Position numbers and translations under genes: made by a program
Assembly: GCA_025656675.1 (NCBI GenBank)
Contig: JAHXHN010000007.1
Span: forward strand, 5,040 to 69,039
DNA from: Candidatus Thiodiazotropha sp. (ex Codakia rugifera)
Lineage (GTDB): Bacteria; Pseudomonadota; Gammaproteobacteria; Chromatiales; Chromatiaceae
Length of the DNA: 64,000 nucleotides
Reading direction: 5' to 3'
In this document: positions 14,434 to 45,328 of the stretch, piece by piece
Layout of the letters: each line of letters starts with the position of its first letter
Position numbering within the stretch: position 1 is the stretch's first letter
Notes under the pieces: model-generated
Seen by the model: only the letters and a program-made list of their open reading frames with translations
What the model was told of the DNA's origin: nothing
Database searches by the model: none

Positions 14434-14446
14434 TTCGATTCTCTCC

Positions 14447-14962: not shown

Positions 14963-14976
14963 GAATTTTCTCCTGC

Positions 14977-22124: not shown

Positions 22125-22187
22125 TCGAGTATCCTCGTTGATTGAACAGATTTTCTAACTACCCGGCTAGCCGGGACCTTCCCATGA

Positions 22188-24890: not shown

Positions 24891-24932
24891 GGAATTCGAA
24901 CCTAATTTAATTTGGCCAGAAGGGACCTACAA

Positions 24933-24946
24933 TTGACTGAAATCAA
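24933..24946. promoter_or_regulatory. FNR/ANR-type box TTGAC-TGAA-ATCAA in the divergent narK/narX intergenic region
   Basis: 9 of 10 matches to TTGAT-N4-ATCAA, about 45 nt upstream of the narK1K2 start codon. Coordinates approximate. Confidence 0.4.
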
Positions 24947-25127
24947 TCCAGCTTTTGCACCAACCCCTTGTCTAATCCTTTAGGAGTATTTGCTGTACCA
25001 CTTGCAATGCATTGAAAAAAAAGATTATTCCTAATAACGTGGCAAGTATTCGCAATCGTGCCGCGATGTTGTCAACGCAGAAGGATTAATCCCACAAATT
25101 TCTTGCTGGAATTGACAATGCAGCCGT

Positions 25128-27098: not shown

Positions 27099-28174
27099 TT
27101 AAAAGTAAAGGCCAGCGTATTGTCATCATCGATGATCATCCCCTATTACGTAAAGGACTGCAGCAACTTGCCAACCTCAGTCACCAGGTTGAGATAATAG
27201 GAGAAACAGACAGTGGTGAGAAAGGGCTGGCAATAGTCAAGGCCTTGCAACCCGATCTTGTATTACTTGATCTGAACATGCCCGGAATGAACGGGCTGGA
27301 AACCCTGGATGCACTGAAACAACTAAAGCCGCAACCTAAGGTAATTATCCTTACTGTCTCGGATACCCAAGAAGATGTCATCGCTGCTTTACGTGGGGGT
27401 GCTGACGGCTACTTGCTGAAAGACATGGATCCCGAAGAACTTCTGCTGAGAATTAGCGAGGTCGAAGAAGGTAAACCGATATTGTCCCCCAAAATTGCTG
27501 AACACTTGGGTGACTCACTGCAGGCAGAGGTTCAGCGCATCGTCATCATTGATGACCATCCCCTATTACGAAAAGGACTGCATCAACTTGTAGATCTCAG
27601 CCCGGACCTCGATATCATCGGGGAAACGGATAATGGTGAACAAGGTCTACTGATGGTTCAAGAGATACAACCCGACCTTGTACTGCTGGATCTGAATATG
27701 CCGGGAATGGACGGGTTGGAAACTCTTCAAGCCCTGAAACAGCTAAAGCCTTCACCCAAAGTGGCAATCCTCACCGTATCCGACAAGCAGAAGGATATCG
27801 TATCTGCCTTACGAAGAGGCGCTGATGGCTATCTGTTGAAGGACATGGACCCTGAGGACCTCCTGCAAAAATTACATGAATTGGCGGAAGGCCGGCTAGT
27901 GATGTCCCAAAACATAGCTGAAAGCCTGGCGCTGGCGTTGCGTGCTGAGAGTCAGAAGGATCAAGAACCGGGGGGTGAAGAACTCACAGAGCGGGAATGC
28001 GAGATCTTAATCCACATAAGCGGCGGTGAGAGCAATAAGGTAATCGCCCGTAAACTTGATATCGCTGAAGCCACAGTCAAGGTGCATGTCAAGCATCTGC
28101 TGAAAAAGCTAGGATTGAAGTCGCGTGTCGAAGCAGCAGTATGGGCCATTACCCATAAAGATGAGCTGAAATGA
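27095..28174 (+). CDS. narL: NarL/LuxR-family response regulator with two tandem receiver domains and a C-terminal LuxR HTH
   Basis: REC1 spans aa 7-118 and REC2 spans aa 147-258. Both begin QRIVIIDDHPLLRKGL and both retain the acceptor Asp in LVLLDLNMPGM. HTH segment ELTERECEILIHISGGESNKVIARKLDIAEATVKVHVKHLLKKLGL. ATGA overlap with narX. Confidence 0.85.
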   Translation: MIKSKGQRIVIIDDHPLLRKGLQQLANLSHQVEIIGETDSGEKGLAIVKALQPDLVLLDLNMPGMNGLETLDALKQLKPQPKVIILTVSDTQEDVIAALRGGADGYLLKDMDPEELLLRISEVEEGKPILSPKIAEHLGDSLQAEVQRIVIIDDHPLLRKGLHQLVDLSPDLDIIGETDNGEQGLLMVQEIQPDLVLLDLNMPGMDGLETLQALKQLKPSPKVAILTVSDKQKDIVSALRRGADGYLLKDMDPEDLLQKLHELAEGRLVMSQNIAESLALALRAESQKDQEPGGEELTERECEILIHISGGESNKVIARKLDIAEATVKVHVKHLLKKLGLKSRVEAAVWAITHKDELK

Positions 28175-28619: not shown

Positions 28620-28648
28620 TTGACATATTATGTCAGACAGTTTATCTT
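28620..28648 (+). promoter_or_regulatory. Candidate sigma70 promoter (TTGACA-N17-TATCTT) overlapping a 15-bp palindrome TGACATATTATGTCA, upstream of the yjfI-like / pspA-like locus
   Basis: Perfect -35 hexamer, a 17-nt spacer and a -10 matching 4 of 6. The inverted repeat TGACAT-N3-ATGTCA spans the -35 hexamer and spacer. Lies about 30 nt upstream of the first gene. Confidence 0.3.
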
Positions 28649-28675
28649 CTACTTATCGTGTGAATGGAGGAACCA

Positions 28676-29095
28676 ATGAACAACCTATTAGAAAAACTGG
28701 AGAGGGTACTCGGTATGTCTGATACGGGAAGCCTGAACGGACTTGAATATGAATTCAATCCGATACCAGGCGAAGTTGAGGTGGTCCAGGTTGCATTTAA
28801 AGATAGGGAGGAACTGCCGATATATCTGACTCAATCAGAAAGTCAGATGCTCTGTATCTGTTATTTATGGGATGACGAGGAGGTTATCTCCGATAAGCGA
28901 GCAGAAATGTTGGAAGTCATGCTGGATATGAATATACCCATGCCCCTCTCCTCTTTTGGCCGGATTGGATCACGCTATACAATATTCGGTGCCCTCTCTC
29001 TCGAATCGTCAGCAGAGAGTATTGCCAGAGAACTTACCGTACTCAGCGACAATGCGCTCGACGCCATTGACGCCATGAGCGAATACTTGAACTAA
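28676..29095 (+). CDS. small acidic cytoplasmic protein, YjfI-like (DUF2170-type) by size and context
   Basis: 139 aa, with GGAGG 6 nt upstream of the ATG at 28676. Sits immediately upstream of a YjfJ-type PspA homolog, as in the enterobacterial yjfIJ arrangement. The family assignment is tentative. Confidence 0.45.
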   Translation: MNNLLEKLERVLGMSDTGSLNGLEYEFNPIPGEVEVVQVAFKDREELPIYLTQSESQMLCICYLWDDEEVISDKRAEMLEVMLDMNIPMPLSSFGRIGSRYTIFGALSLESSAESIARELTVLSDNALDAIDAMSEYLN

Positions 29096-29115
29096 TTCTT
29101 AACAGGAGTCAACCA

Positions 29116-29817
29116 ATGGAATTTTTCAAAAAACTGATTACTGCTATTCGTGGTGGTAGCCGTGAGTTGGGTGAGGCAGTTCTCGATACACAAGGTATCC
29201 GCATCTATGAGCAGGAGATTGAAGATGCAAAGGAGGCAATTAAAAAGGCTGAAAGTGACCTGACAGGCGTCATGGCCAAGAATATGCAGGCTGGCCGCGA
29301 AATCGAACGCCTCGAAAAAGAGGTTGCCAGTTATGAATCGAAGGCATTGAGTGCCCTTGATCAGGATAACGAGGCACTAGCCGGCGAGGTTGCCGAAAAG
29401 ATTGCAGAACTAGAGGTTGAACTCGAAACACAAAGGATTGCCAAGGATAAGTTTTCTGCCCATGTGGATTCGGTCAAAGAGATGATCAAGCAGACTCATG
29501 CAAAGATCCGCGAACATGAACGTGAGATATCCATGGTGAAAACCACGGATAATGTCCATAAAGCAGCCAAATCGATCAATCAGCACATCGATGGTGGCAG
29601 TTCAAAGATGGTTGCTGCCAAAGAGTCGCTGGAGAGAATTAAACATCGCCAACAGGATGATAGTGACCGTATGGTTGCTTCAGAATCGCTGAATGATGAA
29701 TTGAGTGGCGAGTCGCTGGAGAATAAATTAAAAGCGGCAGGTATTGGTGATGAGAGTGATCGTAAAAAGCAGGTGTTGGAACGTTTAAAGGCCAAGCGCA
29801 AAGGCAATGAAAACTGA
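29116..29817 (+). CDS. PspA/IM30 (Vipp1, ESCRT-III-like) family protein, YjfJ-type
   Basis: N-terminus MEFFKKLITAIRGGSRELGEAVLDTQGIRIYEQEIEDAKEAIKKAE... followed by a long coiled coil, as in YjfJ/PspA. AGGAG RBS. Confidence 0.8.
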   Translation: MEFFKKLITAIRGGSRELGEAVLDTQGIRIYEQEIEDAKEAIKKAESDLTGVMAKNMQAGREIERLEKEVASYESKALSALDQDNEALAGEVAEKIAELEVELETQRIAKDKFSAHVDSVKEMIKQTHAKIREHEREISMVKTTDNVHKAAKSINQHIDGGSSKMVAAKESLERIKHRQQDDSDRMVASESLNDELSGESLENKLKAAGIGDESDRKKQVLERLKAKRKGNEN

Positions 29818-29853
29818 TCGTTCACTGCAACAGCAGTATTGCTTTACCCATTT

Positions 29854-29877
29854 GGCATGACCGTCTCCGGTCATGCC
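29854..29877 (+). other. Perfect 10-bp-stem hairpin (GGCATGACCG-TCTC-CGGTCATGCC) in the pspA-like / downstream intergenic region
   Basis: Inverted repeat read directly from the sequence. No T-tract follows, so it is not a canonical intrinsic terminator. Confidence 0.3.
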
Positions 29878-29905
29878 GGTTCAATGATCGATTGCTTATA
29901 CCCTA

Positions 29906-30238
29906 ATGACCAAAAAGAACCCAGCCAAACCGAAACGATGGTCAGATTCCGATAAGGCAATACGTGCAACCCAGGTCGCGTTTGATGTCGAAAATGAGAT
30001 TATTGATACGATAAAAAAGGAAGCTTGTCATAAGGGTGTTGCACCTTCGGATATGATTCGTCATATCGTTGGTCTGAATGTGACCGTAAAGCCTGTCAGA
30101 CCACGCCTTACAATGTCGTTAAAGGAAGATGATTATCATATATTAGCTGAAAAATATGGACTATTGCCCAGTGAGCGTCTTGCAATCAAGACACGGATGA
30201 TCGACGAGATCAGGAAATACGCATCACAGAAAAAATAG
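29906..30238 (+). CDS. small basic hypothetical protein (possible RHH/CopG-like DNA-binding)
   Basis: 110 aa. The segment TMSLKEDDYHILAEKYGLLPSERLAIKTRMIDEI resembles an RHH motif. No clear RBS. Confidence 0.35.
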   Translation: MTKKNPAKPKRWSDSDKAIRATQVAFDVENEIIDTIKKEACHKGVAPSDMIRHIVGLNVTVKPVRPRLTMSLKEDDYHILAEKYGLLPSERLAIKTRMIDEIRKYASQKK

Positions 30239-30270
30239 AGCGGCTAGCTGCTTGAATAAAGGAGATTAAC

Positions 30271-30933
30271 TTGGACGCTTTTTTTGACACGATCAGCAGT
30301 TATCCAACCAGTGTCTATACCGTTATTCTCGGAATAATGCTGGTATTTTGGCTGTTTGCTATTGTTGGCATGCTGGACATCGATCTAATCCCAACTGATG
30401 TTGATGAAGGTCTGTTTGAATCGGATGTGAACTTTGAAGGTGAGATCCCCGGTTTTGTGGGTCTCCTGCATACCCTGGGCTTGACCGGAGTTCCTTTTAC
30501 CTTAGTCATCAGTATCATCGCACTGATAGGTTTCACTCTTTCATATGTTGTCTCGGCCTACCTGCTCATACCCCTAGGCTCAACATTGGTTCGATATGCT
30601 GCTGGTACGTTGGTATTGGTTGGTGGTCTTGCTGTGGCAATTCCCATTACGGCAAAACTGATCAAGCCCATGAAACCACTCTTTGTAAAGCACTTTGCTC
30701 CTTCGAATAAGGATTTTATCGGATATATCTGCACGGTATCGTCTTCAAAAGTAAATACAACATTTGGTATCGGTATTGTGGAGACGGGTGGTTCTCCACT
30801 GCAAATCAACATCCGCGCAGATGAACATCAAGCTTTTAAGAAGGGTATGGCGGTAAGAATCGCTGCTTATGATCAAGCCAATGACGTCTTCGATGTCATC
30901 AGCGAAGAAGAGTATCAAAAACTTGTTGGCTGA
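30271..30933 (+). CDS. YqiJ/NfeD-like (DUF1449-type) inner-membrane protein, flotillin operon partner
   Basis: TTG start with AAGGAG 8 nt upstream. N-terminal TM helices plus a C-terminal soluble, OB-like region. Sits immediately upstream of a YqiK-like flotillin, as in the yqiJK and ydjGHI arrangements. Confidence 0.5.
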   Translation: MDAFFDTISSYPTSVYTVILGIMLVFWLFAIVGMLDIDLIPTDVDEGLFESDVNFEGEIPGFVGLLHTLGLTGVPFTLVISIIALIGFTLSYVVSAYLLIPLGSTLVRYAAGTLVLVGGLAVAIPITAKLIKPMKPLFVKHFAPSNKDFIGYICTVSSSKVNTTFGIGIVETGGSPLQINIRADEHQAFKKGMAVRIAAYDQANDVFDVISEEEYQKLVG

Positions 30934-30971
30934 AAACCGACACAGTTTCAATTTATAGAGGAAGTAAAGAT

Positions 30972-33029
30972 ATGGAAACAATCCTATTTATCATTGGATC
31001 TGCTGCAATTATTCTGCTTGGCGTATTTGCCCTGTTTGCTGGCCTATACAAAAAAGTTCCGCAGGGTAAAGCAATGATCGTGAGCACCCTCAGTAAAGAT
31101 CCAAAAGTGACGTTTACCGGTGCCTTGGTACTGCCTGTCATTCACCTCAAGGAGTTGATGACTATCTCTCTGAAGACGATCGAAATCGATCGCCGTGGAC
31201 ATGATGGGCTGATCTGTAAGGATAATATACGAGCAGATATCAAAGTAACTTTTTTTGTACGGGTAAATATGACCAAGGATGATGTATTGAAAGTTGCACA
31301 AGCCGTGGGTGTTGAGCGGGCCTCCGATCAATCATCGGTCGAAGAGCTTTTCTCAGCTAAATTTTCAGAAGCCTTGAAAACAGTGGGAAAACGAATGGAT
31401 TTCATCTCCCTGTACGAAGAGCGGGATGCTTTCAGAGATGACATCATCGAAGTTATCGGTAAAGATTTGAATGGTTATGTGCTTGAAGACGCAGCCATCG
31501 ATTATCTTGAGCAGACACCTGTTGAATCATTGGATCGGGACAACATTCTCGATGCAGAAGGCATTCGAAAAATCACCGAACTCACTGCAACCCAGCATAT
31601 CAAAACGAATGAGTACGAGCGGGATGAGGAGAAGGCGATTAAGAAGAAGGATGTTGAGACTCGTGAGGCGGTATTACAGCTGGAAAAGCAGGAGAAAGAT
31701 GCAATAGCTCGTCAGCATCGGGAAGTTGCCACGATTCAGGCACGGGAAGAAGCGGAGACACAAAAGATCCAGGCAGAGGAGAATCTCAGAGCTGAAGAGG
31801 CACGTATCAAGATGGAAGAAGCGATTGCAATCCAGGAGGAGAATAAACAGCGGGAAATCGAAGTTGCCGCCTATCAACGTCAAAGCGTAACTGTTAAAGA
31901 GGCAGAAGGTGTCACCAAAGCCAAAGATCTTGAAATTGTAGAGCGTCAGCGCATTGTTGCCCTTGCCGATTATGCCAAGGAGAAAGAGGTTGAACAGGAG
32001 AAAAAGGAGATCGCGGATCTCACCAGCGATCGCATATCGGTAGAGAAGCGGGTTGCGGAAGAAGAGGAGAATATCGAAAAAGTGCGTCTTGTCTCCAAGG
32101 CCGAACGTGAGAAGGAAGCTACCATCATCGCTGCTGAAGCTGAAGCGCAAGAGGGTCTTGTCAAAGAGGTGAAAGCAGCTGAGGCAGAGGCTCAAAAAGC
32201 GATTCAGAAGGCACAGGAAGAGGTGACACTGGCCGAAGGACGTAAACAATCAGCCACACTCGATGCCGAGGCGGCCATCAAACAGGCTGAGGCAACCCGT
32301 TCACTGGAAGCAGCCCCTGGGTTAGCAAAAGCAGAGGTCATGGAAGCCACCGCAGTTGCAAAAGAGAAAGATGGATTGGCCGAAGCAGTTATCCTGCGTG
32401 AGAGACTTGAGGCTCAGGCCATTGGTAATGAAAAAGTTGGACTGGCCGCGGCAAGGATTAAGGAAGCAGATGCGGATGCAGTTGAGAAGATGGGTGAGGC
32501 TGATGCAAAAAATGTTGAGTTGCGTTTTCTTGCTGAGGCCAATGGTCTGAAGGAGAAATTCACCGCTATGGACGCCATGAGTGACCATTCCCGACAACAT
32601 GAAGAGTTCCGTCTCAAGCTTGATCTCAACCACACAGAGACGATGCGCTGGATCGAGGCCAATACTGAGATCGCCAAAGAACAGGCTGATATTCTTGCTT
32701 CAGCCCTCAGCGATGCCAACATAGATATTGTCGGTGGTAGTGGCGACTACTTTGAGAAGTTCGTCAATGCACTTGCGGTTGGTAAATCAATGGATGGGGT
32801 TGTACGTGGTGAGACTGCCCAAAAATTGCTGGGAAAACACCTCAGTGGTGAAGCCGATTTAATTGAGGATATCAAGGATATTGCTGCTGGGCTTGGTGGC
32901 AATAGCGACAGTCTGCAGAATCTCACTGTTAGCGCCTTTATTGCCAAAATGATGCGAGATGGCAACCCAGAGCAAAAAGAGATGCTACAAAAACTGATGG
33001 GATCTGTCTCTAGTCAAAAAACATCATAA
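30972..33029 (+). CDS. flotillin-like SPFH-domain protein (YqiK/YdjI-type) with long E/K-rich coiled coil
   Basis: N-terminal TM helix, an SPFH domain (KKVPQGKAMIVSTLSKDPKVTFTGALVLPVIHLKELMTISLKTIEIDRRGHDGLICKDNIRADIKVTFFVRV) and about 400 aa of EA/EK-rich coiled coil. Confidence 0.85.
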   Translation: METILFIIGSAAIILLGVFALFAGLYKKVPQGKAMIVSTLSKDPKVTFTGALVLPVIHLKELMTISLKTIEIDRRGHDGLICKDNIRADIKVTFFVRVNMTKDDVLKVAQAVGVERASDQSSVEELFSAKFSEALKTVGKRMDFISLYEERDAFRDDIIEVIGKDLNGYVLEDAAIDYLEQTPVESLDRDNILDAEGIRKITELTATQHIKTNEYERDEEKAIKKKDVETREAVLQLEKQEKDAIARQHREVATIQAREEAETQKIQAEENLRAEEARIKMEEAIAIQEENKQREIEVAAYQRQSVTVKEAEGVTKAKDLEIVERQRIVALADYAKEKEVEQEKKEIADLTSDRISVEKRVAEEEENIEKVRLVSKAEREKEATIIAAEAEAQEGLVKEVKAAEAEAQKAIQKAQEEVTLAEGRKQSATLDAEAAIKQAEATRSLEAAPGLAKAEVMEATAVAKEKDGLAEAVILRERLEAQAIGNEKVGLAAARIKEADADAVEKMGEADAKNVELRFLAEANGLKEKFTAMDAMSDHSRQHEEFRLKLDLNHTETMRWIEANTEIAKEQADILASALSDANIDIVGGSGDYFEKFVNALAVGKSMDGVVRGETAQKLLGKHLSGEADLIEDIKDIAAGLGGNSDSLQNLTVSAFIAKMMRDGNPEQKEMLQKLMGSVSSQKTS

Positions 33030-33090
33030 CCCAGTTGATAAGACCTATATAAGGAAGCTTTGGTGCTCGCACAAAAGTTAAGGAGTTGGC

Positions 33091-36000
33091 ATGTCTGACA
33101 TGGTCACAAAGGATGAGAAGCAGAACCTGGAGCGCGCAGTCGCTGAAGGTGGTGCCTATGAGGTCATACGCAAACGACTGCTTGACCAAGCGAAAATGTT
33201 GGGCAAGCAGGTGACATCGCTGAATGAGGCCAGGCTGGCGGAGTTTGGTGATACCTCAATGGAGGTGGTCAGTCGAGTTCGTGTACGTACTGAAAATAAC
33301 TGCATAGCCCGTGATATCGCACTGGTAGATGACAGTCTGCTTTTTGGCTATAACGTCTTCATTGGCCTCAAGAAGGAAACTCAGGTTAGAGATGTCTTTG
33401 GTCTCTATCGATTGATTGAGACAGAGGATGGATTGGAGATTGAGCCTCGTCCTCTGCATGGCTCATTCCTGGACGAGTCCTCCTTTATTGCCGATTTTCA
33501 AGAACTCTACGCCTATTACAAGAATACCCGGCTCTCTAAACTACTGGTTGCCAATCAGTATTTACTGGCTACCTTCCAAATCGGGGAGAAGACATCTGAT
33601 ATAAAAGTTTTCCGTTGGTCGATCGGCAACAATGGAACTGTTCGCTATATCGATAATCGAGGTGAACGGGATATCCCTGCCCCACCCCGCTATGATTTTG
33701 AATGGGTTGCGTGTGACCGTGAAAATTTCATCACTGGTAGATTTCCCCATATCGGTATTCTTGACGAAGTTTTCATCGACACGATAAACGGATCGCTTAC
33801 CATTAAGGTGGAAAACAATACCGAGGCCGGACTGGGCATCTACGAGGAGCCTGTGGATGATAAAAACCAGTCCCTGGCTGATGCCAGTGTCCAGTACGCC
33901 AAAGTGGGGAGTTTGATCGTTCTTAAGGTTCTTCCCTATCGCGAGCAAGATTGGCGCTATTTCATTTTTAACACCAAGACGAAGGCAGTCATGCGTTCCG
34001 ATGCCATCGGTGAAGCTTGTCAACAGTTGCCGGAAGATCATGGCTTGATTTTCCCCGGTGGTTATTACCTTGAAAGTGATGAGACAAAAGTTTTCGATGA
34101 GGATAACCGGGGTATGCAGTTCGAGCGAGAAGTCAGGTCTCCGAATGGTGAAGACGTGCTCTATCGATTCTATGAACCTGTCTCAGGACGACTATCAGTA
34201 TACGTCTATAATTTAATCCGTAAGGATCTGCAACCTCCCCTGGTGGGGCATGGTTTTGCCCGCTTCAATGATGGAACGGCCATGCTGTTTAGCACCGATA
34301 CAGATGAACCAACTCGAAATCATCCCATGCAGGTTTGGCGAACCCCCTTTTCGAGTGACAGTCTCCTATCTAGAGAATCTGTCAGTCAAACCTTTCTAGG
34401 TAAAATCGGTAACGCGGAACTGGTGCGTGGTATTTCTGAATTTTACTCCGTTATACGGCGCATTCAGGAGCAAAAACCCAGTGCTATCCTCTATGAAGAC
34501 CTGATCAAGAGCTGTAGTGAGATCCTGGATAGATACCACTGGATCAACAAGCAGGAAACCGGTTCCATGGGGCAAATAGTTCGCCAGATACGCGAGACTG
34601 CTGAATTGGTTCTTGATGAATTCGAGAAGGTCCAGATTATTCAGCAACAAGCACTGCATGCAGTAGCTGATGCAACAAGTGCACAACAGAAAACACTACA
34701 AGCAATCAACCGGCGTGACTACAGAAAACCCGACGATTATGTAATTGGTCTTAAATCGATTCAGCAACATCGCGGCCATCTCCTCACAATGCGTGAACAA
34801 CGCTACATTGACCACGCAGCCCTGGATAACCTTGATGAGAGATTGCTCGATGAAGAGGAACGCCTCTCCAGCAAAACCGTTAATTACTTGCAGAGAGATG
34901 ATGCTTTCAATAGCTATGAGGAAGCGATTGAAGAGACCCTGAAGTCGATTGGAAAGGTAGAGACAGTTATCGATATCCAGCCGATCCAACAGCGACTTGA
35001 TGAAATAGGTGACGGTCTCGACCTCCTGACTGAGATGCTGAACTCACTGAAAGTCAACGATACAACAATACGGACGACCATACTCGAGACCATGTCCACA
35101 GTCTATGCGCGTCTCAACCAGGCCAGGGCTCGTGTTCGCAATCATCTGAAGGAGGTTGGTGCCGGAGAAGCGGTAGCGGAATTCGGCGCACAGTTCGCCC
35201 TCTTTTCACAATCAGTTATCAATGCACTCGGTCTGGCAACCACTCCGGAAAAATGCGACGAACAACTCTCCAAGCTATTAGTACAGTTGGAGGAGTTTGA
35301 AAGTAAATTCAGTGATTTTGATGAATTTCTCAATGACATCATCACAAAGCGAGAAGAGGTCTATGAAGCCTTTGAGGCACGAAAACAGACTCTCCTGGAT
35401 GAACGTCAGCGGCGAATCCACAATCTGAACAGTGCTGCCACACGGCTGCTAGATGGTATTGAAAAGCGCACCCAGAAGATGCAGTCACAGGATGAGATCA
35501 ATACCTACTTCGCCTCTGACCCAATGGTCAATAAGGTACGCACTCTCTCTAAGACGATCCGGGAACTGGGCGATACGGTTCGTTCAGATGACATTGATTC
35601 ACGCCTGAAAAATGCCAAAGAACAATCGGTGCGTTCACAACGGGACAAACAGGAGTTATTTGAGGATGGCGGCGAGGTCATAAAATTTGGTCGTCACCGC
35701 TTCAGTGTCAATGTTCAGGAGACAGACATCACAATTGTCCCTCATGAGAATACCATGGCATTGCATCTCAGTGGTACTGACTATTTTGAATCTGTGACTG
35801 ACCAGCGCCTGATCGCATTGCAGGGTTATTGGGAGCAAAGCCTACCCTCTGAAAATGGTCATGTCTATCGTGTTGAATATCTGATCTATACGTTGCTGAA
35901 TGCCGCTGAGCGGGGTGAATCCGGTCTCTCTATGAAATCGCTCATGGAACAGCAAGGCAATCAAACAGCATTGGCTGAAACCATCAGGAAGTTCATGACA

Positions 36001-38364
36001 CCACGCTATCAAGAGGGGTATGAGAAAGGCATCCACGATCAGGATGGAGTAATTTTACTAAACGCCATCTTAAAGATGTATCAGACCGCCTCTCTGTTAC
36101 GCTTCAGCCCAAGAAGTCGGGCCCTGGGTATGCTCTTCTGGCATGAGAAGCACAGAGATTCCCAACTGCTAAAAGCACGCGCCTGGATCGAACGAGCAAA
36201 AAGTGTTCATCAGCTGGAACAGGCCTTTGGTGCTTCAGATGCCTTTCAACGTTTACGCGAGGAACTCACTCAACAGATAAGTGAGTTTAGCACTGCCGGC
36301 AATCTACCTTTTTCCCCTACCGAAGCGGCATTGAGTGCCCACTATCTCACTCTGGAGTTGGCTAAGCCTAAACTCAGCTTTGAGGTCAGTGAGTATGCCA
36401 GTGAGCTTGCCGATCGCCTGATACAGCAACTGCGGAGACTCAAACATCAAGAGACCTTTTCTCAAGCACTCGATCAGATGAAGGGTGATAGTGGATCTCG
36501 TTGGAATCTGGTCTCGACATGGATCGATGGTTTTATCCGATTTCAGCAACTGGAGCAGCATGATTTCTTCAAAGCCGAAGCCACTGCCCTACTTCTGGCG
36601 GGTAATAGCCTGCCTGTGCAAAAACGCAGTGCGGTCATCCAACAAAATCTTGACGATCTACTTGGCGACCACCCGCGTATCGAATCTCAATCCATGTTAT
36701 TGCTGCTTCCTGAGTTTCTTGACCGGTTACACCACTTTAACTCATCCATTCTGCCTGAATATGAGTCCTTCAAGGTACTTCGGTCTGAACTTATTGATGA
36801 GGCTCGAAAGCAGTTGCGGATCGAAGATTTCAAGGGGCGCCCCCTCTCCTCCTTTGTACGTAATCGATTGATCAATGATGTCTATCTACCCATCATTGGT
36901 GACAACCTCGCCAAACAGTTGGGTACCGTCGGTAAAGATAAGAGAACCGACCTGATGGGACTGCTGTTACTGATATCACCTCCCGGCTATGGCAAAACAA
37001 CATTGATGGAGTACATTGCCAATCGTATGGGATTGATTTTCATGAAGATCAACTGTCCCTCTCTGGGGCATGACGTGCTTTCTCTCGATATCCAGCATGC
37101 ACCTAACGCAACAGCGCGCCAGGAACTGAAAAAACTCAATCTGGGTTTGGAAATGGCCAACAATGTAATGCTCTATCTTGATGACATCCAGCATACCAAT
37201 CCGGAATTTCTGCAGAAATTTATCTCTCTCAGTGATGGGACAAGACGTATTGAAGGTGTCTGGAAAGACAAACCGAAAACCTATGATCTTCGAGGAAAGA
37301 AGTTCTGTATTGTGATGGCAGGCAATCCCTATACTGAATCAGGAGACGTCTTCAAAATACCTGACATGCTGGCCAATCGCGCAGATATTTATAACCTGGG
37401 TGATGTCCTGAGCGGTCATGATGATGCATTCGCCCTAAGTTATATTGAAAATTCACTCACATCAAATCCAGTACTGGCACCTCTGGCAAATCGGGATATG
37501 CAGGATGTCTACCGGTTTGTACGCCTAGCAAAGGGTGAGAATATCCCTGGCACCGACTTTACACACGCATACAGTAGTGCAGAGACCAATGAAATTGTTG
37601 GCGTATTAAAGAAGCTATTCAAAGTTCAACAGACAGTAATGCGTGTCAATCAGCAGTATATTGAATCAGCAGCTCAAGATGACAAGTATAGGACAGAACC
37701 ACCATTCAAGTTACAGGGTAGCTATCGTAACATGAATAAACTGGCAGAAAAGATCAGTTCGATCATGAACGAAGATGAGCTGAATGCAATCATACGTGAC
37801 CACTATTTAGGTGAAGCACAGACACTCACCAGTGGTGCCGAGGAAAACCTACTAAAATTGGCTGAGATCTCTGCCTCTCTGACTGAAGAGGAGGCTGCAC
37901 GTTGGAACAAAATCAAGGCAGACTTTACCCGCATCCAAAGTATGGGAGGAGAAGGTGCAGATGCTGTTACCAAGATCGCCAACCAGATAGCCAGTGTTTC
38001 AGGTGAACTCAAGACCATTGATCAATCTCTGAGTCAGGCGTTTTCAAATAATCGGGCTGATGCTATCCAAGAGGAGTTGCAGGCACTTGTTTCATTGATC
38101 AGAACACTCGAACTCAATGTGGAAGTTATCAACAAACCGGTACCCGGCATGGATAAGGTATTGAGCGCCATGGGCGATGCCATCAATACTTCACTGCTTC
38201 CTGTAGTACAGGCAATGGAGCATAAATTAAAGATGGATCACGATATTTGGGAACGGGTCAAACGACTTGGAGAACAGATAGGCTCCCTTGAAAAATCAAT
38301 GGTGAAGACAACGCGAAAAAAACGCATAATTTCGAAGAAAAAAACTACCACTAGAACCGATTGA
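33091..38364 (+). CDS. 1757-aa protein with a single AAA+ ATPase module near aa 1290-1470, flanked by long helical / coiled-coil regions and a lysine-rich C-terminal tail
   Basis: Walker A LLLLISPPGYGKTTLMEYIANRMG, Walker B NVMLYLDDIQH, and sensor-1-like FCIVMAGNPYT. The N-terminal about 430 aa look beta-rich. The remainder is predominantly helical. C-terminus TRKKRIISKKKTTTRTD. AAGGAG RBS. No GTPase motifs. Confidence 0.8.
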   Translation: MSDMVTKDEKQNLERAVAEGGAYEVIRKRLLDQAKMLGKQVTSLNEARLAEFGDTSMEVVSRVRVRTENNCIARDIALVDDSLLFGYNVFIGLKKETQVRDVFGLYRLIETEDGLEIEPRPLHGSFLDESSFIADFQELYAYYKNTRLSKLLVANQYLLATFQIGEKTSDIKVFRWSIGNNGTVRYIDNRGERDIPAPPRYDFEWVACDRENFITGRFPHIGILDEVFIDTINGSLTIKVENNTEAGLGIYEEPVDDKNQSLADASVQYAKVGSLIVLKVLPYREQDWRYFIFNTKTKAVMRSDAIGEACQQLPEDHGLIFPGGYYLESDETKVFDEDNRGMQFEREVRSPNGEDVLYRFYEPVSGRLSVYVYNLIRKDLQPPLVGHGFARFNDGTAMLFSTDTDEPTRNHPMQVWRTPFSSDSLLSRESVSQTFLGKIGNAELVRGISEFYSVIRRIQEQKPSAILYEDLIKSCSEILDRYHWINKQETGSMGQIVRQIRETAELVLDEFEKVQIIQQQALHAVADATSAQQKTLQAINRRDYRKPDDYVIGLKSIQQHRGHLLTMREQRYIDHAALDNLDERLLDEEERLSSKTVNYLQRDDAFNSYEEAIEETLKSIGKVETVIDIQPIQQRLDEIGDGLDLLTEMLNSLKVNDTTIRTTILETMSTVYARLNQARARVRNHLKEVGAGEAVAEFGAQFALFSQSVINALGLATTPEKCDEQLSKLLVQLEEFESKFSDFDEFLNDIITKREEVYEAFEARKQTLLDERQRRIHNLNSAATRLLDGIEKRTQKMQSQDEINTYFASDPMVNKVRTLSKTIRELGDTVRSDDIDSRLKNAKEQSVRSQRDKQELFEDGGEVIKFGRHRFSVNVQETDITIVPHENTMALHLSGTDYFESVTDQRLIALQGYWEQSLPSENGHVYRVEYLIYTLLNAAERGESGLSMKSLMEQQGNQTALAETIRKFMTPRYQEGYEKGIHDQDGVILLNAILKMYQTASLLRFSPRSRALGMLFWHEKHRDSQLLKARAWIERAKSVHQLEQAFGASDAFQRLREELTQQISEFSTAGNLPFSPTEAALSAHYLTLELAKPKLSFEVSEYASELADRLIQQLRRLKHQETFSQALDQMKGDSGSRWNLVSTWIDGFIRFQQLEQHDFFKAEATALLLAGNSLPVQKRSAVIQQNLDDLLGDHPRIESQSMLLLLPEFLDRLHHFNSSILPEYESFKVLRSELIDEARKQLRIEDFKGRPLSSFVRNRLINDVYLPIIGDNLAKQLGTVGKDKRTDLMGLLLLISPPGYGKTTLMEYIANRMGLIFMKINCPSLGHDVLSLDIQHAPNATARQELKKLNLGLEMANNVMLYLDDIQHTNPEFLQKFISLSDGTRRIEGVWKDKPKTYDLRGKKFCIVMAGNPYTESGDVFKIPDMLANRADIYNLGDVLSGHDDAFALSYIENSLTSNPVLAPLANRDMQDVYRFVRLAKGENIPGTDFTHAYSSAETNEIVGVLKKLFKVQQTVMRVNQQYIESAAQDDKYRTEPPFKLQGSYRNMNKLAEKISSIMNEDELNAIIRDHYLGEAQTLTSGAEENLLKLAEISASLTEEEAARWNKIKADFTRIQSMGGEGADAVTKIANQIASVSGELKTIDQSLSQAFSNNRADAIQEELQALVSLIRTLELNVEVINKPVPGMDKVLSAMGDAINTSLLPVVQAMEHKLKMDHDIWERVKRLGEQIGSLEKSMVKTTRKKRIISKKKTTTRTD

Positions 38365-39023
38365 GTCATCAATTGGCAAGATCAAAGTTCAGTTTTATTT
38401 TACAGGTTGTAGCAGCACTGGTCCTTAGTGCCATTCCAATTCTCCACTATCCATTTGCCTGGTTTGAGACCCTATTCCATGAACTTTCTCATGGGCTGAG
38501 TGCTGTCTTGACTGGAGGTTCCATAGAGTCAATAGCGCTGAATTACAATGGCTCGGGCTTATGCACCACTATAGGTGGTAACCGGTTTCTAATACTCGTA
38601 TCTGGATACACCGGTAGTGCATGTTGGGGCTTCCTTGTCTATATTTCTGTAACCTATACTAAGGCACATTCTGTGAAAATAGTGGCTGCATTACTTGCTA
38701 TCTTAGCTGCATTTGTCGGCATCCTATGGGTAAGAGATATTGTGACACTTAGTATCCTTCTCGTTATTATCATCGTATTCTTCGTCGCATACCGCTATGG
38801 AAGCCACCAGCTAACCCGGTCGTTTATCGAATTTACCGGTATCTATGTGGTGATGAATGCTATCCGCAGTCCTCTGTATCTGATTGATGGTAGGGATATC
38901 GGAGATGGAAGCGCACTTTCAGAATTAACCTATATACCCGAGATTTTTTGGGTGACAATATGGGCTTTGATTGGGATATCTATTTTGATGCTACTCTATC
39001 AGCGCTCTATAAAATCTGTTTGA
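38361..39023 (+). CDS. M50B-like intramembrane zinc-metalloprotease-family protein (HExxH within a TM segment)
   Basis: 220 aa polytopic membrane protein with the motif FHELSHGLSAVLTGG at the end of the first TM helix. TTG start overlapping the stop of the preceding gene (TTGA). Confidence 0.5.
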   Translation: MSHQLARSKFSFILQVVAALVLSAIPILHYPFAWFETLFHELSHGLSAVLTGGSIESIALNYNGSGLCTTIGGNRFLILVSGYTGSACWGFLVYISVTYTKAHSVKIVAALLAILAAFVGILWVRDIVTLSILLVIIIVFFVAYRYGSHQLTRSFIEFTGIYVVMNAIRSPLYLIDGRDIGDGSALSELTYIPEIFWVTIWALIGISILMLLYQRSIKSV

Positions 39024-39421
39024 TTTGATACTCAGGCTGGTGCGTATATTCAGGCTTCCCAATAGTTATAAAGATTATGTTTTGATTTAGCAGATTGACG
39101 CATAAGAGCAGAGATACACAACCGTTCATCATGCAAACAGTTTGTGATATCTCTTCAGATAAACTTACATCACCGTTATCTCGATAGCTCATTTTTATTC
39201 ACTAACTGGGTTTATATTTGAATTTAAAATGAATTTGTCATTGGCGTCATTTTAAGGAAGAGCATTCCTATTTAAACATGCTGACCTGTAGAAACCCTAG
39301 TGTGTGCCGATAAACCATAAGAGTAAGATATATTGTCCATTTTATCGTTTTAAGGAAAAGGCAGATTAACAGTATATCTGTTACTTATATATGTTTTACA
39401 TAGAGTTACAGGTTAATATTA

Positions 39422-40492
39422 ATGTCTTTTCTTGTGTTAAATCGAGGTACTGTCAATCTAGTTACTAGAAGTCTGAATGCAGCTTATGGCTTATTACCGA
39501 CACTGATACTTATTACATCTGCATTCATCCTGTTCAATGCAGTCACAGTACGTGCAGAGACCTCGTGGGATCTAACCCAAAATAGCCGGCTAGCATTTGA
39601 TATTTCCAGTAAAATCAGCCGAAATATCGACACTCACCACTCCGCAGCAAGTCATGTATTCGGCTTGGACTTTCATAAAGTTTTTTCCGCTGAATCAGGC
39701 GATATTGGTACTCTGGTCTTCCAACCGTACATCGTATCCCTGAACAATGTACCGAACCCCCCCTTTTTCTTTGATGATGGTGAAGATACGGAGTTAACAT
39801 GGCGTATCGCCAACTTCAATTACACCGCTCTATCAGAGGGCAATTTCAATATCCGCTTTGGACATTTCGAAATACCTTTTGGGCTTGAGCAGAATCTCGA
39901 TACGAATGGCACACTTCGACAATATACCTTCTCAGATCGTGGCATTAAGGCCGACTGGGGTATCTCATTTAATGGCATATTGACCAACCTTGACTATGAA
40001 GTTGCACTGACCCGTGGGTCTGGTAATGAAGTTAAGAGTCAGGGAGACCCATTTATTTTTTCTGGCCGTTTCGGTACACCCTCACATGAGAATTTTGTAG
40101 TAGGCCTATCCTGGTTTTATGGTGATGTGCTGGGTGGTAGTGGAATAACTGAGCGAAAATATTTGGGTCTTGATTTTGCTTATTACTACCATAACTGGGA
40201 ACTCCTGATGGAAGTCTCGGGTGGAAAAACCGAACAGGTGGATACGGTTAATGTGTTAATGGAAGTATCATGGCGATCTGCCGTGGAGGACCTACACCTG
40301 TACGCTCAATGGAAGAACTCACAATTGAAAACTGATAATGATTGGGAAGCTGGTGATGATTTTATTGCCGGACTCCGGTGGTTCCAATCTTCGAACTTCG
40401 AAATCAGTACTCAATTTGTAAAACAACTTGATCTGGTCAAGCAACAGGAAAAACCAACATTGTTAACACTTCAGATACGACTGCGTATTTAG
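39422..40492 (+). CDS. hypothetical secreted protein, possible outer-membrane beta-barrel
   Basis: Signal peptide (...ILFNAVTVRA/ETS) with alternating hydrophobic residues, rich in Tyr, Gly, Phe, Asn and Trp. AT-rich codon usage. Confidence 0.35.
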   Translation: MSFLVLNRGTVNLVTRSLNAAYGLLPTLILITSAFILFNAVTVRAETSWDLTQNSRLAFDISSKISRNIDTHHSAASHVFGLDFHKVFSAESGDIGTLVFQPYIVSLNNVPNPPFFFDDGEDTELTWRIANFNYTALSEGNFNIRFGHFEIPFGLEQNLDTNGTLRQYTFSDRGIKADWGISFNGILTNLDYEVALTRGSGNEVKSQGDPFIFSGRFGTPSHENFVVGLSWFYGDVLGGSGITERKYLGLDFAYYYHNWELLMEVSGGKTEQVDTVNVLMEVSWRSAVEDLHLYAQWKNSQLKTDNDWEAGDDFIAGLRWFQSSNFEISTQFVKQLDLVKQQEKPTLLTLQIRLRI

Positions 40493-40510
40493 AATATTGA
40501 GAGTTGGAAT

Positions 40511-41116
40511 ATGAAGATAATTGCTAACTTGTTATCCCTACTGATTTTTTTAAGTGCAAATATGGCACATGGTGCCTATTGCTCGCTGCGAGATCCTGTC
40601 ACAGCTATCAAAACACTATATCATAATACAAATCAATATCGCTCAATCGTTGCACCCATTACAAATAAGAACAGAGACAGTGTAAAAGATCTCCTTCCCT
40701 TTACTCTACACAGGAGCGAGATAGGAAAACATACGCTTTATATGGTACTTGATAACAACAAACCCACCGGGTTTGTACAAGCAAGATCAGAATTGGCGGA
40801 ATGGGGGCTTATTGAGATTGCATGGGGTATCAATTTTGATATGACAATAAATGGTCTGTTTTTCCAACGCTGTAGAAGCCCAAAATGCAATCAGGTTCTC
40901 TCCGACAAACTTAATAATCTTCTTAAAGACAGGTCATTTAAAGAGATTCGCGATATGTTGAGTGATGATGGCACGAAGACAGCTTCATCAATAGCTTCTA
41001 AGTTCAGTGAATCTAACGATATAGCCTTGTTAGCCATTAGGTCTGCTTTGAAAACGATTGCTATTACTGAAATAACCTGGAAAAAAGAGATAACTGAAAT
41101 AACAGGAATCAAATGA
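40511..41116 (+). CDS. hypothetical secreted protein
   Basis: Signal peptide (LLSLLIFLSANMAHGA). No recognisable domain. Lies in a low-GC region. Confidence 0.35.
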   Translation: MKIIANLLSLLIFLSANMAHGAYCSLRDPVTAIKTLYHNTNQYRSIVAPITNKNRDSVKDLLPFTLHRSEIGKHTLYMVLDNNKPTGFVQARSELAEWGLIEIAWGINFDMTINGLFFQRCRSPKCNQVLSDKLNNLLKDRSFKEIRDMLSDDGTKTASSIASKFSESNDIALLAIRSALKTIAITEITWKKEITEITGIK

Positions 41117-41172
41117 ATCTACCCATATCCTTAGTGACAGGGTAGATCATGGTAATAATGACATAGATAGTA

Positions 41173-43221: not shown

Positions 43222-43384
43222 GCGTTATTCAAATATAAACTATGAATAAATAATGCCAATATATCTATATTATTCTCACTGATGATTAATCCTCATAGAA
43301 AAAAGTATACAGTGTTCTACATATATGACAGTAAAATACCGCCCCAGCTTATTTTAAACCAGGGCGATATAGCCGAGGAGAGCC

Positions 43385-43780
43385 TTACACAGTGCGAATC
43401 TCGATCTTACGAGGCTGGAACTGCTCCCGCTTGGGGATCCGCAATGACAATACACCATCCTTGAGCGTCGCTTCAGTTTTATCTGCATCCAGTTCACTGC
43501 TAAGCGAAAAACTCCGCTGGTAACGGGTTGCTCTAACACCCACATGGACAACTTCCATATCTTCCAGTGTTGAGATTTCAGTTCTTCCGTCTATTGTCAA
43601 CGTCTCTTTATCGACCTGAACATCAAGTCCCTTTTTTGAGACACCAGGCATATCTGCCATGACAGTGATCCCGGTTTCATCCTCAAATATATCGACACTG
43701 GGCCTGATAGTTGTTTGGGAAGTAGCAACAGGTTGTTGAGTTACCACTTCTCTTTCAGTCATATCGTTTCGATTGTTCAT
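43385..43780 (-). CDS. Hsp20/alpha-crystallin small heat-shock protein
   Basis: Alpha-crystallin domain (...GITVMADMPGVSKKGLDVQVDKETLTIDGRTEIS...YQRSFSLSSELDADKTEATLKDGVLSLRIPK). Confidence 0.85.
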   Translation of the reverse strand: MNNRNDMTEREVVTQQPVATSQTTIRPSVDIFEDETGITVMADMPGVSKKGLDVQVDKETLTIDGRTEISTLEDMEVVHVGVRATRYQRSFSLSSELDADKTEATLKDGVLSLRIPKREQFQPRKIEIRTV

Positions 43781-43799
43781 GAATCTTACCTCTTACCTT

Positions 43800-44243
43800 T
43801 TACTGAACTGTGATCTGACGCGGTTTGGAAGCCTCACGCCGCTGTACAACAATATGCAATACACCGTTGCTATAGCTTGCCTCAACCTTGTCCGCATCCA
43901 CATCTTCTGGCAAGTTGACCACTTTATGAAATGCACCGTCATAACGCTCATTTCTTATGTATTTGACCTTAGTGTCTTTACTTATCAGACGTTCACCTTC
44001 TACAGTCAGTTGGCTGTCATGTATTGAAATAATCAGGCTTTCCGGATTGACACCGGCAATAAACAGGTAGAGATCAACCTGGGTTGATGTGGTGCCGATG
44101 TTGATAGGTGGATAGGAATCCTTCGCCACGGAATGAATGGTATTTGGCCACACACCTGCACTGAAAAGTTTATCCATTTCATGTTCCATGCGCCTGAATT
44201 CATTGAGCAGGCCACCCTCAAAACCGTGTAATCTAGCAATCAT
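43800..44243 (-). CDS. Hsp20/alpha-crystallin small heat-shock protein
   Basis: Alpha-crystallin domain (...ISIHDSQLTVEGERL...YDGAFHKVVNLPEDVDADKVEASYSNGVLHIVV). Start taken at the internal Met of the track ORF. Confidence 0.8.
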   Translation of the reverse strand: MIARLHGFEGGLLNEFRRMEHEMDKLFSAGVWPNTIHSVAKDSYPPINIGTTSTQVDLYLFIAGVNPESLIISIHDSQLTVEGERLISKDTKVKYIRNERYDGAFHKVVNLPEDVDADKVEASYSNGVLHIVVQRREASKPRQITVQ

Positions 44244-44295
44244 TTGGATCTCTCCTTTGCAATTCTCATGCAATCATTCATAGCGTTGCCTTGTA

Positions 44296-44324
44296 GATAG
44301 GGATTCGAGTGTTATTTTTCAAGT
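44296..44324 (-). promoter_or_regulatory. Candidate sigma32 heat-shock promoter (CTTGAAA-N14-CCCTATCT) upstream of the tandem sHSP genes
   Basis: The reverse strand reads CTTGAAAAATAACACTCGAATCCCTATCT. This matches the sigma32 consensus CTTGAAA-N13-15-CCCCATNT. Coordinates approximate to within 2 nt. Confidence 0.45.
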
Positions 44325-45318: not shown

Positions 45319-45328
45319 TGATTAGATA

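Follow-up and report, generated by a model that had tools for sequence, protein, structure and literature searches.

A seven-gene PspA, flotillin and giant DUF3686 ATPase locus of Candidatus Thiodiazotropha is a lineage variant of a described operon class

We analysed 64,000 nucleotides (nt) of contig JAHXHN010000007.1 from Candidatus Thiodiazotropha sp. (ex Codakia rugifera), a stretch called here the window, and found that a block of seven co-directional genes ending at position 39023 belongs to an operon class that has already been described, in which a YjfI-PspA pair stands with genes for a YqiJ-like membrane protein, a flotillin and a giant AAA+ ATPase with a DUF3686 domain. The block is therefore not a new kind of system. 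It is probably the Thiodiazotropha-lineage version of a known family of envelope-stress and membrane-maintenance operons, built from two fused modules. What distinguishes the window variant is an M50B-like metalloprotease gene at its tail, an in-operon gene for a predicted tandem ribbon-helix-helix (RHH) regulator with its putative operator, and a sigma-70-type promoter.

Scanning genomes with a profile built on the giant protein, we confirmed at least 536 relatives and surveyed the neighbourhoods of the best 80, searching their open reading frames (ORFs) with profiles seeded from the window. The surveyed taxa were Gamma-, Beta-, Zeta- and Deltaproteobacteria, Longimicrobium and a Clostridia metagenome-assembled genome (MAG), mostly Proteobacteria; denominators are the loci with enough upstream or downstream DNA. 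We found a flotillin gene beside the ATPase gene in 73/73 loci and a YqiJ-like gene in 70/70, and the order was invariably YqiJ, flotillin, ATPase on a single strand. The YjfI-PspA dyad was present in 42/69 loci, both genes always together, mostly directly upstream and twice divergent. PspA was not within 10 kb in 27/69 loci, and flotillin and YqiJ were never missing. Hence, the constant partner of the ATPase is flotillin/YqiJ, not PspA. The preliminary description of this DNA had set as a check whether homologues of the giant gene are recurrently linked to pspA or flotillin genes, and the survey shows that they are. Given the presence of the core in every evaluable locus and the recurrence of the full order in three related genomes with unrelated flanks, the seven-gene arrangement is well beyond chance.

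That description had also supposed that the combined architecture was undescribed, and here it was mistaken. Ravi et al. (mSystems 2024; bioRxiv 2020; PMC11237479) reported an operon class that joins CesT/Tir (YjfI) and PspA genes to genes for a Band-7/flotillin protein, a YqiJ/YuaF protein and a novel AAA+ protein with a coiled coil and a beta-propeller, with a hydrolase of the phospholipase D (PLD) type in some Proteobacteria. According to the same paper, abbreviated flotillin-YqiJ-ATPase operons are widespread and RHH genes occur occasionally in YjfI-PspA operons. Wallart et al. (2024, PMC10948618) showed by reverse-transcription PCR (RT-PCR) that the 'biofilm-associated cluster' bacA-bacF of Pseudomonas aeruginosa is a single operon and that loss of BacA raises BacB-F 6-13-fold; bacABCDEF corresponds to PA3732-PA3727 (Mace 2008, Wallart 2024). 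PA3731 (BacB) is reported to be induced by membrane-active staphylococcal phenol-soluble modulin (PSM) peptides (bioRxiv 10.1101/2023.01.29.526047). In our survey, the Pseudomonas paraeruginosa locus (L027) encodes YjfI, PspA, YqiJ, flotillin, the DUF3686 ATPase and PLD, and the BacA equivalog model gives its first gene 340 bits (cut-off 300). Hence, the bac operon is the P. aeruginosa version of the operon class of Ravi et al., since this locus has the class order and its first gene passes the BacA model.

The genes of the window locus are the following.

28664-29095 (ORF; likely coding sequence 28676-29095), + strand: gene 1, YjfI/DUF2170 protein (Pfam).
29116-29817, + strand: gene 2, YjfJ-type PspA/IM30 protein (Pfam).
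29906-30238, + strand: gene 3, 110-residue tandem RHH-like protein, putative operon repressor (alignment, weak Pfam matches).
30271-30933, + strand: gene 4, YqiJ/NfeD2-like membrane protein of 220 residues (hhalign, hydropathy).
30972-33029, + strand: gene 5, flotillin (Band_7, YqiK match).
33091-38364, + strand: gene 6, DUF3686 AAA+ protein of 1757 residues, soluble, BacE homologue (Pfam).
38361-39023, + strand: gene 7, M50B-like membrane zinc metalloprotease of 220 residues (Pfam).

The ORF listing agrees with the preliminary description on all seven co-directional genes, and its gene identities are upheld by Pfam, BLASTP and hhalign, that of the RHH-like protein through weak profile matches and an alignment. 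It had placed the locus at 28620-39023; the end at 39023 stands, and 28620 is instead the -35 box of a promoter-like site, with gene 1 likely beginning at 28676. From gene 1 to gene 6 the gaps are, in order, 20, 88, 32, 38 and 61 nt, and genes 6 and 7 overlap by 4 nt (aTTGA), the TTG start of the M50B gene overlapping the ATPase stop. This overlap, noted before, is real in the window but is not conserved: in relatives the gap is 28-45 nt. The short gaps, a single promoter-like site and the lack of a clean internal terminator are signs of one operon, for which the RT-PCR proof comes from P. aeruginosa only.

The giant ATPase is most similar (identity of up to 95%) to proteins encoded by Candidatus Thiodiazotropha MAGs; these bacteria oxidise sulfur and live in symbiosis with lucinid clams. 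Gene order in one Thiodiazotropha locus (L001) is identical to that of the seven window genes, and two further relatives, L081 (79% ATPase identity) and L082 (72%), keep it with entirely different flanks. Hence, the seven-gene block is a discrete conserved unit, confirmed as such by these comparisons and predicted to be an operon.

Gene 1 matched Pfam DUF2170 (E 1.8e-33) and E. coli YjfI (1e-11), and scored 43 bits against the NCBIfam BacA equivalog model, below the 300-bit cut-off; NCBIfam gave no other informative name for any operon protein. According to the literature, YjfI/DUF2170 proteins have a CesT/Tir-type chaperone fold. Its ATG at 28676 has GGAGG 5 nt upstream and is conserved as a start in relatives; because the Shine-Dalgarno sequence and ATGAAC are conserved in the upstream alignment of the window, L081 and L082, this ATG is the likely start of gene 1. 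Directly downstream of the DUF2170 gene, after 20 nt, lies the YjfJ-type pspA, whose product matched Pfam PspA_IM30 (E 1.1e-37), E. coli YjfJ over its full length (31% identity, BLASTP 1e-26) and P. paraeruginosa BacB (39% identity, 7e-46). PspA/IM30 proteins belong to the bacterial ESCRT-III superfamily, and those of the YjfJ type have in common a conserved basic C-terminal helix with the motif VLxRLK.

No relevant Pfam match was found for any of the 27 members of the gene 4 family (gene 4 and 26 homologues). However, its family profile aligned with E. coli YqiJ (hhalign probability 91.5%, E 8.8e-7) across the last transmembrane segments and the C-terminal beta-domain, and by hydropathy gene 4 has three to four hydrophobic or transmembrane segments, an acidic loop and a C-terminal beta-domain. 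The profile comparison and this layout support its assignment as YqiJ-like. Gene 5 matched Band_7 (E 3e-7) and E. coli YqiK (BLASTP 1e-38); the flotillin has one N-terminal transmembrane segment, an SPFH domain and a long coiled coil. A PDB sequence search with it gave no match.

Gene 6 is a DUF3686 protein (Pfam DUF3686 3e-193, DUF7902 3e-26, AAA_5 2.7e-9); the protein collection searched contains more than 5650 homologues. The N-terminal DUF3686 domain matched 718 clusters at 50% identity, and full-length proteins were mostly 1550-1900 residues among the 150 clusters listed. No transmembrane segment was predicted. Two domains stand out.

33262-34341, + strand: beta-propeller-like domain of gene 6, residues 58-417 (AlphaFold2, Foldseek).
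36937-37770, + strand: AAA+ module of gene 6 (Walker motifs, model, Pfam).

Structure prediction of the giant protein alone, which the preliminary description had suggested, succeeded for one end and not for the other. The AlphaFold2 model of residues 1-700 was good (pLDDT 86, pTM 0.70) and has an N-terminal helix, then the propeller, then helical bundles to about residue 700. With residues 58-417, Foldseek returned 97 PDB matches at E<=1e-3, and 48 of the 50 listed contain beta-propeller domains. The model of residues 1181-1757 (577 residues) was poor (pLDDT 65, pTM 0.40): its most conserved stretch, before Walker A, was left unmodelled, and the core from Walker A to sensor-1 was moderately confident.

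The AAA+ module has Walker A GYGKT (1299-1303), Walker B LYLDD (1361-1365), a beta-hairpin (1386-1399) and a GNP sensor-1. Walker A, sensor-1 and a candidate arginine finger, R1430, are invariant in homologues. In Walker B (37171-37185), aspartate replaces the catalytic glutamate in all 39-50 homologues aligned, from which the giant ATPase may be a slow or regulated hydrolase. AAA_5, matched over profile positions 2-127 of 139, was the best Pfam match for the module. The beta-hairpin, with a local pLDDT of about 70-86, follows the Walker B helix and precedes the sensor-1 strand. Foldseek neighbours of the AAA+ model were NorQ and CbbQ (top, TM scores of 0.15-0.3), MCM, RuvB, HslU and ClpB-type proteins, with low TM scores. 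A pre-sensor-1 hairpin is said to separate the HCLR/MoxR/MCM/dynein superclade from the classical clade, a division credited to Iyer in 2004 and to Erzberger and Berger in 2006; the classical clade contains Vps4, FtsH and p97. Among Pfam matches at E<=0.01 there was no MIT or Vps4_C domain. Hence, with a pre-sensor-1 hairpin and no MIT domain, the ATPase does not appear Vps4-like, and we place the module with moderate confidence outside the classical clade, perhaps in the HCLR/MoxR/MCM/dynein superclade. The operon has no gene with a VWA domain, the MoxR-type partner. In PDB sequence searches the whole ATPase profile had no match, and the AAA region, alone or as a profile, aligned only near Walker A.

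Gene 7 matched Peptidase_M50B (PF13398) at 1.4e-38, with 133 bits against a cut-off of 26. It has about six hydrophobic or transmembrane segments, HELSH at residues 40-44 and D182, and H40, E41, H44 and D182 are invariant in 21 M50B homologues. The active site thus appears intact, and a protease role is predicted.

The gene after the ATPase varies by lineage, and its start is often in a 4-nt overlap with the stop codon of the ATPase gene. Enough downstream DNA was available for 74 loci; in one of them (the Thiodiazotropha locus L001) the next gene is M50B, as it is in the separately fetched relatives L081 and L082. M50B after the ATPase is a Thiodiazotropha-lineage trait, so it is not the general extension of the ATPase module for which the preliminary description had taken it. 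The same slot holds a rhomboid protease of about 185 residues with intact GASG and His motifs in 15/74 loci (L002, L003, L004, L005, L006, L009, L010, L017, L019, L020, L022, L024, L029, L033 and L053). A single-HKD PLD-like gene, whose product weakly resembles NucT, DrmC and DpdK, is present in 19/74 loci, eight of which read ATPase, rhomboid, PLD. In 10/74 loci, all Xanthomonadales, the gene encodes a soluble helical protein of about 230-260 residues with the motif GW[LI]GRLLGRD, which we call XanU (L035:15274-16050, L040, L042, L044, L046, L047, L049, L054, L066:15334-16041 and L078). XanU had no Pfam or NCBIfam match, and we rejected it as a divergent rhomboid or M50B protein (hhalign probability 0.1%; soluble). 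Three Comamonas loci (L065:15530-18976, L071 and L072) have an MscK-like mechanosensitive channel of 1148 residues after the ATPase, which is another link of the ATPase system to membrane tension. That the post-ATPase slot is variable and often holds a hydrolase (rhomboid, PLD or M50B) is apparently a new detail: Ravi et al. (PMC11237479) mention PLD only, and their main text and supplement have no mention of M50/M50B, rhomboid or protease. Our literature searches for a rhomboid with flotillin and PspA, or for a flotillin and MoxR operon, found no relevant description.

The M50B clade is also linked to YjfI-PspA away from the ATPase. In the Mariprofundaceae locus L084 and the metagenomic locus L088, the order is AdoMet_dc-M50B-...-DUF2170-PspA-...-spermine synthase, with no flotillin or ATPase; such M50B-bearing, polyamine-type YjfI-PspA operons contain genes for AdoMet decarboxylase, DUF350/YjfL, a spermine-synthase-like protein and a K+ channel. 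Another contig, P0029 (59% ATPase identity), reads PspA-213aa-106aa-K channel-311aa-DUF350-M50B-YqiJ-flotillin-ATPase, with M50B upstream of YqiJ. Since this contig joins a polyamine-type operon to YqiJ-flotillin-ATPase, it suggests that PspA operon classes exchange modules. A distant M50B homologue (L085) has an unrelated context. Hence, the M50B clade is recurrently, not universally, linked to YjfI-PspA, in three gene orders, and the linkage outside flotillin/ATPase operons is apparently a new detail as well.

Three elements that may control expression lie in the noncoding DNA of the locus.

28620-28648, + strand: sigma-70-like promoter TTGACA-17 nt-TATCTT (10/12 consensus matches).
28622-28634, no strand: perfect 13-bp palindrome GACATATTATGTC, candidate RHH operator, overlapping the -35 box.
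29852-29879, + strand: 12-bp GC-rich RNA hairpin with no U tract, in the pspA-RHH gap.

The -35 and -10 boxes are conserved in L081 and L082 and the surrounding DNA is not: in the upstream alignment little is conserved except TTGACATAWTATGTC, the -10 box, the Shine-Dalgarno sequence and ATGAAC. The conserved element TTGACATAWTATGTC includes the perfect 13-bp palindrome GACATAWTATGTC. A sigma-54 promoter, as proposed for bacA, was rejected: the DNA 5' of the operon has no -24/-12 match, and across the window such matches occur at chance level.

We scanned the window and 87 loci (1.98 Mb) for the palindrome, and L088 separately. Exact copies occur only in the window and seven loci (L001:5436, L032:6993/7116/7145 of which one site has one mismatch, L053:4903, L074:6834, four copies in L075:6898-7083, L081:3496 and L082:3403), and L088 has three more (9617/10708/10723). 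Copies with one mismatch are, besides that L032 site, those at L063:4945 and L084:12415. Nearly all copies lie 5' of yjfI or inside a divergent yjfI/yqiJ gap; in L088 one lies 5' of the operon-heading AdoMet_dc gene and two between M50B and yjfI.

The RHH-like protein has two tandem strand-helix-helix units, seen by eye in an alignment of ten homologues, and weak Pfam matches to RHH_1 (7.6e-4, in 2/10 homologues), CopG_antitoxin and DUF6364. Homologous genes are present in 9/87 loci and in L088, always within or adjacent to YjfI-PspA operons, and in 7/80 of the surveyed ATPase loci; the 103-residue product in L088 is a clear homologue of the 110-residue window protein (about 1e-36). The palindrome is present at 9/11 places that carry the RHH gene. 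Only two loci have the palindrome and no RHH gene: L084, with its one mismatch, and L074, where the copy lies about 300 nt upstream of yqiJ and no RHH gene occurs within 10 kb. The pairing extends to polyamine-type operons without flotillin or ATPase. Because the gene co-occurs with a palindrome that overlaps the -35 box, we read its product as a likely autorepressor; the tandem-RHH protein would be a dedicated repressor of the YjfI-PspA module that binds GACATAWTATGTC over the -35 box. We found no description of this regulator-operator pair in the literature, and Ravi et al. (PMC11237479) give no operator for the operon class.

The hairpin region between pspA and the RHH gene folds at -30.7 kcal/mol (z -4.1; 0/200 shuffles). 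Hairpins occur at the matching position in L081 (about 4721-4743) and L082 (about 4622-4654), the latter with a different stem sequence. The element may act in partial termination or in stabilising the mRNA, and it may set the ratio of YjfI-PspA to downstream products.

Upstream of the locus are narGHJI, narK-type transporter genes and a NarX/NarL-like two-component pair. This nitrate reductase cluster (13735-28174) contains narGHJI on the minus strand, two NarK-type genes of the major facilitator superfamily, one of them a 900-residue fusion-sized ORF, and the NarX-like kinase; the response regulator of the region has two receiver domains and a LuxR-type helix-turn-helix. We rejected the histidine kinase and response regulator (25128-28174) as operon regulators: they are NarX/NarL-like, lie beside narGHJI and narK and are absent from the flanks of relatives. 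Hence, since the flanks of L081 and L082 differ, the two-component pair belongs with the nar cluster. Genes at 39422-41116 were likewise rejected as operon members, being preceded by a 400-nt AT-rich gap and not conserved in relatives; beyond this gap are unrelated genes and a GGDEF-EAL protein. GC content is about 0.40-0.43 across 38000-46000, 0.44-0.49 in the PspA-flotillin operon and 0.52-0.54 in the nar region, a drop that may be a sign of mosaic origin. Farther downstream, on the minus strand, a 1622-residue hybrid sensor (50446-57978; CHASE8-HAMP-HisKA-HATPase-Hpt-3xREC-GGDEF-EAL), an unusually large cyclic di-GMP signalling protein, is encoded downstream of YfiR/HmsC-like and TonB-dependent receptor genes, and two multihaem cytochrome genes lie at 59800-62983 (domains Cytochrome_cB, MtrC/MtrF-like and c554-like).

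We propose that the operon would work as two modules. Module A (YjfI, PspA, the tandem-RHH protein and, in this lineage, M50B) would be a stress-inducible PspA unit. The RHH protein would repress the operon through the palindrome GACATATTATGTC that overlaps the -35 box, and membrane damage would lift this repression. PspA would then coat the damaged inner membrane and seal or remodel it, by analogy with characterised PspA proteins, and YjfI would be either a CesT-like chaperone or a negative regulator of PspA, as BacA is in P. aeruginosa. In module B (YqiJ, flotillin and the giant ATPase), flotillin and its NfeD-like partner would assemble into an SPFH oligomer that serves as a scaffold at the cytoplasmic side of the membrane, as other SPFH proteins do. 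The soluble ATPase would dock there by its N-terminal beta-propeller and helical arm and would use ATP to assemble, remodel or clear the scaffold or its clients; because the flotillin/YqiJ linkage is invariant and PspA optional, we infer that its primary target is the flotillin/YqiJ assembly. M50B would cleave a membrane protein in this context and would fill the slot held elsewhere by a rhomboid protease and/or a PLD-type hydrolase, enzymes that would process membrane protein or lipid.

Several observations weigh against this reading. Walker B ends in DD and not DE, so robust hydrolysis is not guaranteed, and the AAA+ clade is only indicative because the C-terminal model is poor. The RHH fold is weakly backed by profiles and the operator role of the palindrome rests on co-occurrence. 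The neighbourhood survey covers the 80 best-scoring genomes of at least 536 matches, mostly Proteobacteria. Regulation differs between lineages, since dependence on sigma-54 is reported for the P. aeruginosa operon and does not hold for that of the window. No recognised tail gene follows the ATPase in 39/74 loci. Relatives of M50B also occur in Alteromonadales-type contigs (dinG-tsaB-unknown-M50B-hydrolase) with no PspA or flotillin, and because M50B is linked to the ATPase in one lineage and is found in these dinG-tsaB contexts, its role is perhaps only loosely tied to the system.

If the giant AAA+ protein served specifically to take apart or remodel the PspA polymer, flotillin and YqiJ would be only a membrane platform and the operon would be an analogue of ESCRT-III/Vps4. 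PspA is an ESCRT-III homologue, bacteria have no known Vps4 equivalent (PMC7619361), PspA and ATPase genes share one operon in 42/69 genomes, and Ravi et al. raise the idea for PspA/AAA+ associations generally (PMC11237479); it is also conceivable, as a speculation, that the VLxRLK helix is a docking motif. However, this motif is found in E. coli YjfJ too, whose operon has no such ATPase, and the 27 PspA-less loci, the failure of Pfam to find MIT or Vps4_C, AAA_5 as the best match, the pre-sensor-1 hairpin and fold neighbours of the MoxR/MCM/RuvB/HslU type, not of the classical clade, all point away from Vps4. The PspA-less loci and the AAA+ type count against a Vps4-like action on PspA, which we regard as unlikely; the Vps4 analogy of the preliminary description is likewise not supported, although its statement that no Vps4-like ATPase is known for PspA agrees with the review literature. 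Alternatively, the operon could be a split analogue of HflK/C-FtsH that performs quality control and not sealing: membrane proteins would be confined by a cage of flotillin and extracted or presented by the AAA+ protein, while the interchangeable tail enzyme would degrade proteins or lipids within the microdomain. SPFH-protease pairings are established (PMC2636767), the slot recurrently holds intramembrane proteases with intact catalytic residues, or PLD, and its gene is often in 4-nt overlap with the ATPase stop. Yet a tail enzyme is lacking in about half of the loci, the PLD and XanU families are soluble, and M50B elsewhere accompanies PspA operons without flotillin or ATPase. We judge this version quite unlikely.

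The variable tail could also be taken as a set of swappable effectors (nuclease-like PLD, proteases and membrane-disrupting PspA or flotillin) under a large NTPase, as in an anti-phage or abortive-infection system, and both the weak likeness of the PLD protein to NucT, DrmC and DpdK and a GC content of the window cluster lower than that of the upstream nar region would fit. We nevertheless consider a defence role very improbable: none of the seven proteins had a significant PADLOC match (only coiled-coil and P-loop noise at E>=1e-3), the genes around the operon serve housekeeping or respiration and are not defence islands, the P. aeruginosa phenotypes are biofilm, rhamnolipid, virulence and envelope stress, and the components are classic membrane-stress proteins. 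Hardly tenable is the database reading, by which a DNA repair ATPase merely lies beside unrelated membrane genes. It draws on the labels of Pfam DUF3686 ('ATPase involved in DNA repair') and NCBI ('DNA repair ATPase') and on weak P-loop matches to RuvB, but the RuvB similarity is confined to the Walker A region and no DNA-binding or nuclease domain was detected. Further, the YqiJ/flotillin linkage is invariant across phyla, and the P. aeruginosa homologue is co-transcribed with membrane genes (PMC10948618). Judged from sequence, the 'DNA repair' label has no support beyond the P-loop similarity, and we found no relevant description of DUF3686 in the literature.

The reading as an envelope-stress and membrane-maintenance operon of two fused modules is therefore the one we favour. 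It can be extended, doubtfully, into a bolder conjecture: the DUF3686 ATPase would be the enzyme, missing until now, that spends energy on remodelling flotillin and/or PspA assemblies, paired with an interchangeable membrane-embedded hydrolase (M50B, rhomboid or PLD), as a split counterpart of HflK/C-FtsH that clears or cleaves proteins and lipids in a stress-induced microdomain under the control of a tandem-RHH repressor on GACATAWTATGTC. How PspA/ESCRT-III polymers and flotillin scaffolds turn over without a Vps4-like enzyme is an open question in the field (PMC7619361), and on genomic grounds the DUF3686 ATPase makes a strong candidate for the enzyme that energises flotillin/PspA dynamics. 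It is encoded in pathogens and in chemosynthetic symbionts, and the bac operon of P. aeruginosa affects biofilm formation and virulence. To this picture the window and the survey add testable elements: the variable hydrolase slot, the recurrent M50B-PspA linkage and the regulator-operator pair.

Among known systems, site-2 proteases (M50: RseP, RasP and SpoIVFB) resemble the window M50B protein in being polytopic, with HExxH and a downstream Asp, in an envelope-stress context; unlike them, the window protein is of family PF13398, small (220 residues) and without PDZ or CBS domains, and neither an anti-sigma substrate nor a site-1 protease could be recognised. The pspA-ydjGHI operon of B. subtilis likewise encodes PspA with an SPFH protein that links PspA to the membrane (PMC7619361), but the window has no YdjG or YdjH (TPM) homologues and the B. 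subtilis operon has no YjfI, giant ATPase or M50B. In E. coli, by direct comparison, module A matches yjfIJ and module B matches yqiJK; there, however, the modules are unlinked, giant ATPase, M50B and RHH genes are lacking, and yjfIJ(KLMC) continues into polyamine-related genes.

With ESCRT-III/Vps4 the locus shares a PspA of the ESCRT-III superfamily and an AAA+ protein encoded in its operon, and differs in that the window ATPase has no MIT domain, appears non-classical and is invariably linked to flotillin, not PspA. SPFH-protease pairs are established as HflKC-FtsH, prohibitin with the m-AAA protease and stomatin with NfeD (PMC2636767). Like HflK/C-FtsH and stomatin-NfeD (STOPP), the window encodes together an SPFH scaffold, an NfeD-like partner, an AAA+ protein and a membrane metalloprotease, but its ATPase (DUF3686) and protease (M50B) are separate proteins of unrelated families, whereas FtsH is a fused AAA-M41 protein; also unlike those pairs, the window flotillin is predicted to face the cytoplasm and the protease is lineage-specific.

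Closest are the described members of its own class. P. aeruginosa bacABCDEF has five genes alike in order and family (BacA-BacE) and, as in the window, a hydrolase gene after the ATPase. The window operon is nevertheless not a strict bac orthologue: its BacA score is 43 bits against 300, its tail gene is M50B and that of Pseudomonas PLD-like, Pseudomonas has no RHH gene between PspA and YqiJ, and the sigma-54 promoter proposed there is replaced by a sigma-70-like promoter and palindrome, with no -24/-12 site. All components listed for the operon class of Ravi et al. are present in the window, the ATPase propeller and helical arm being confirmed in the predicted model, and where that paper mentions PLD only, the window adds M50B and the putative operator.

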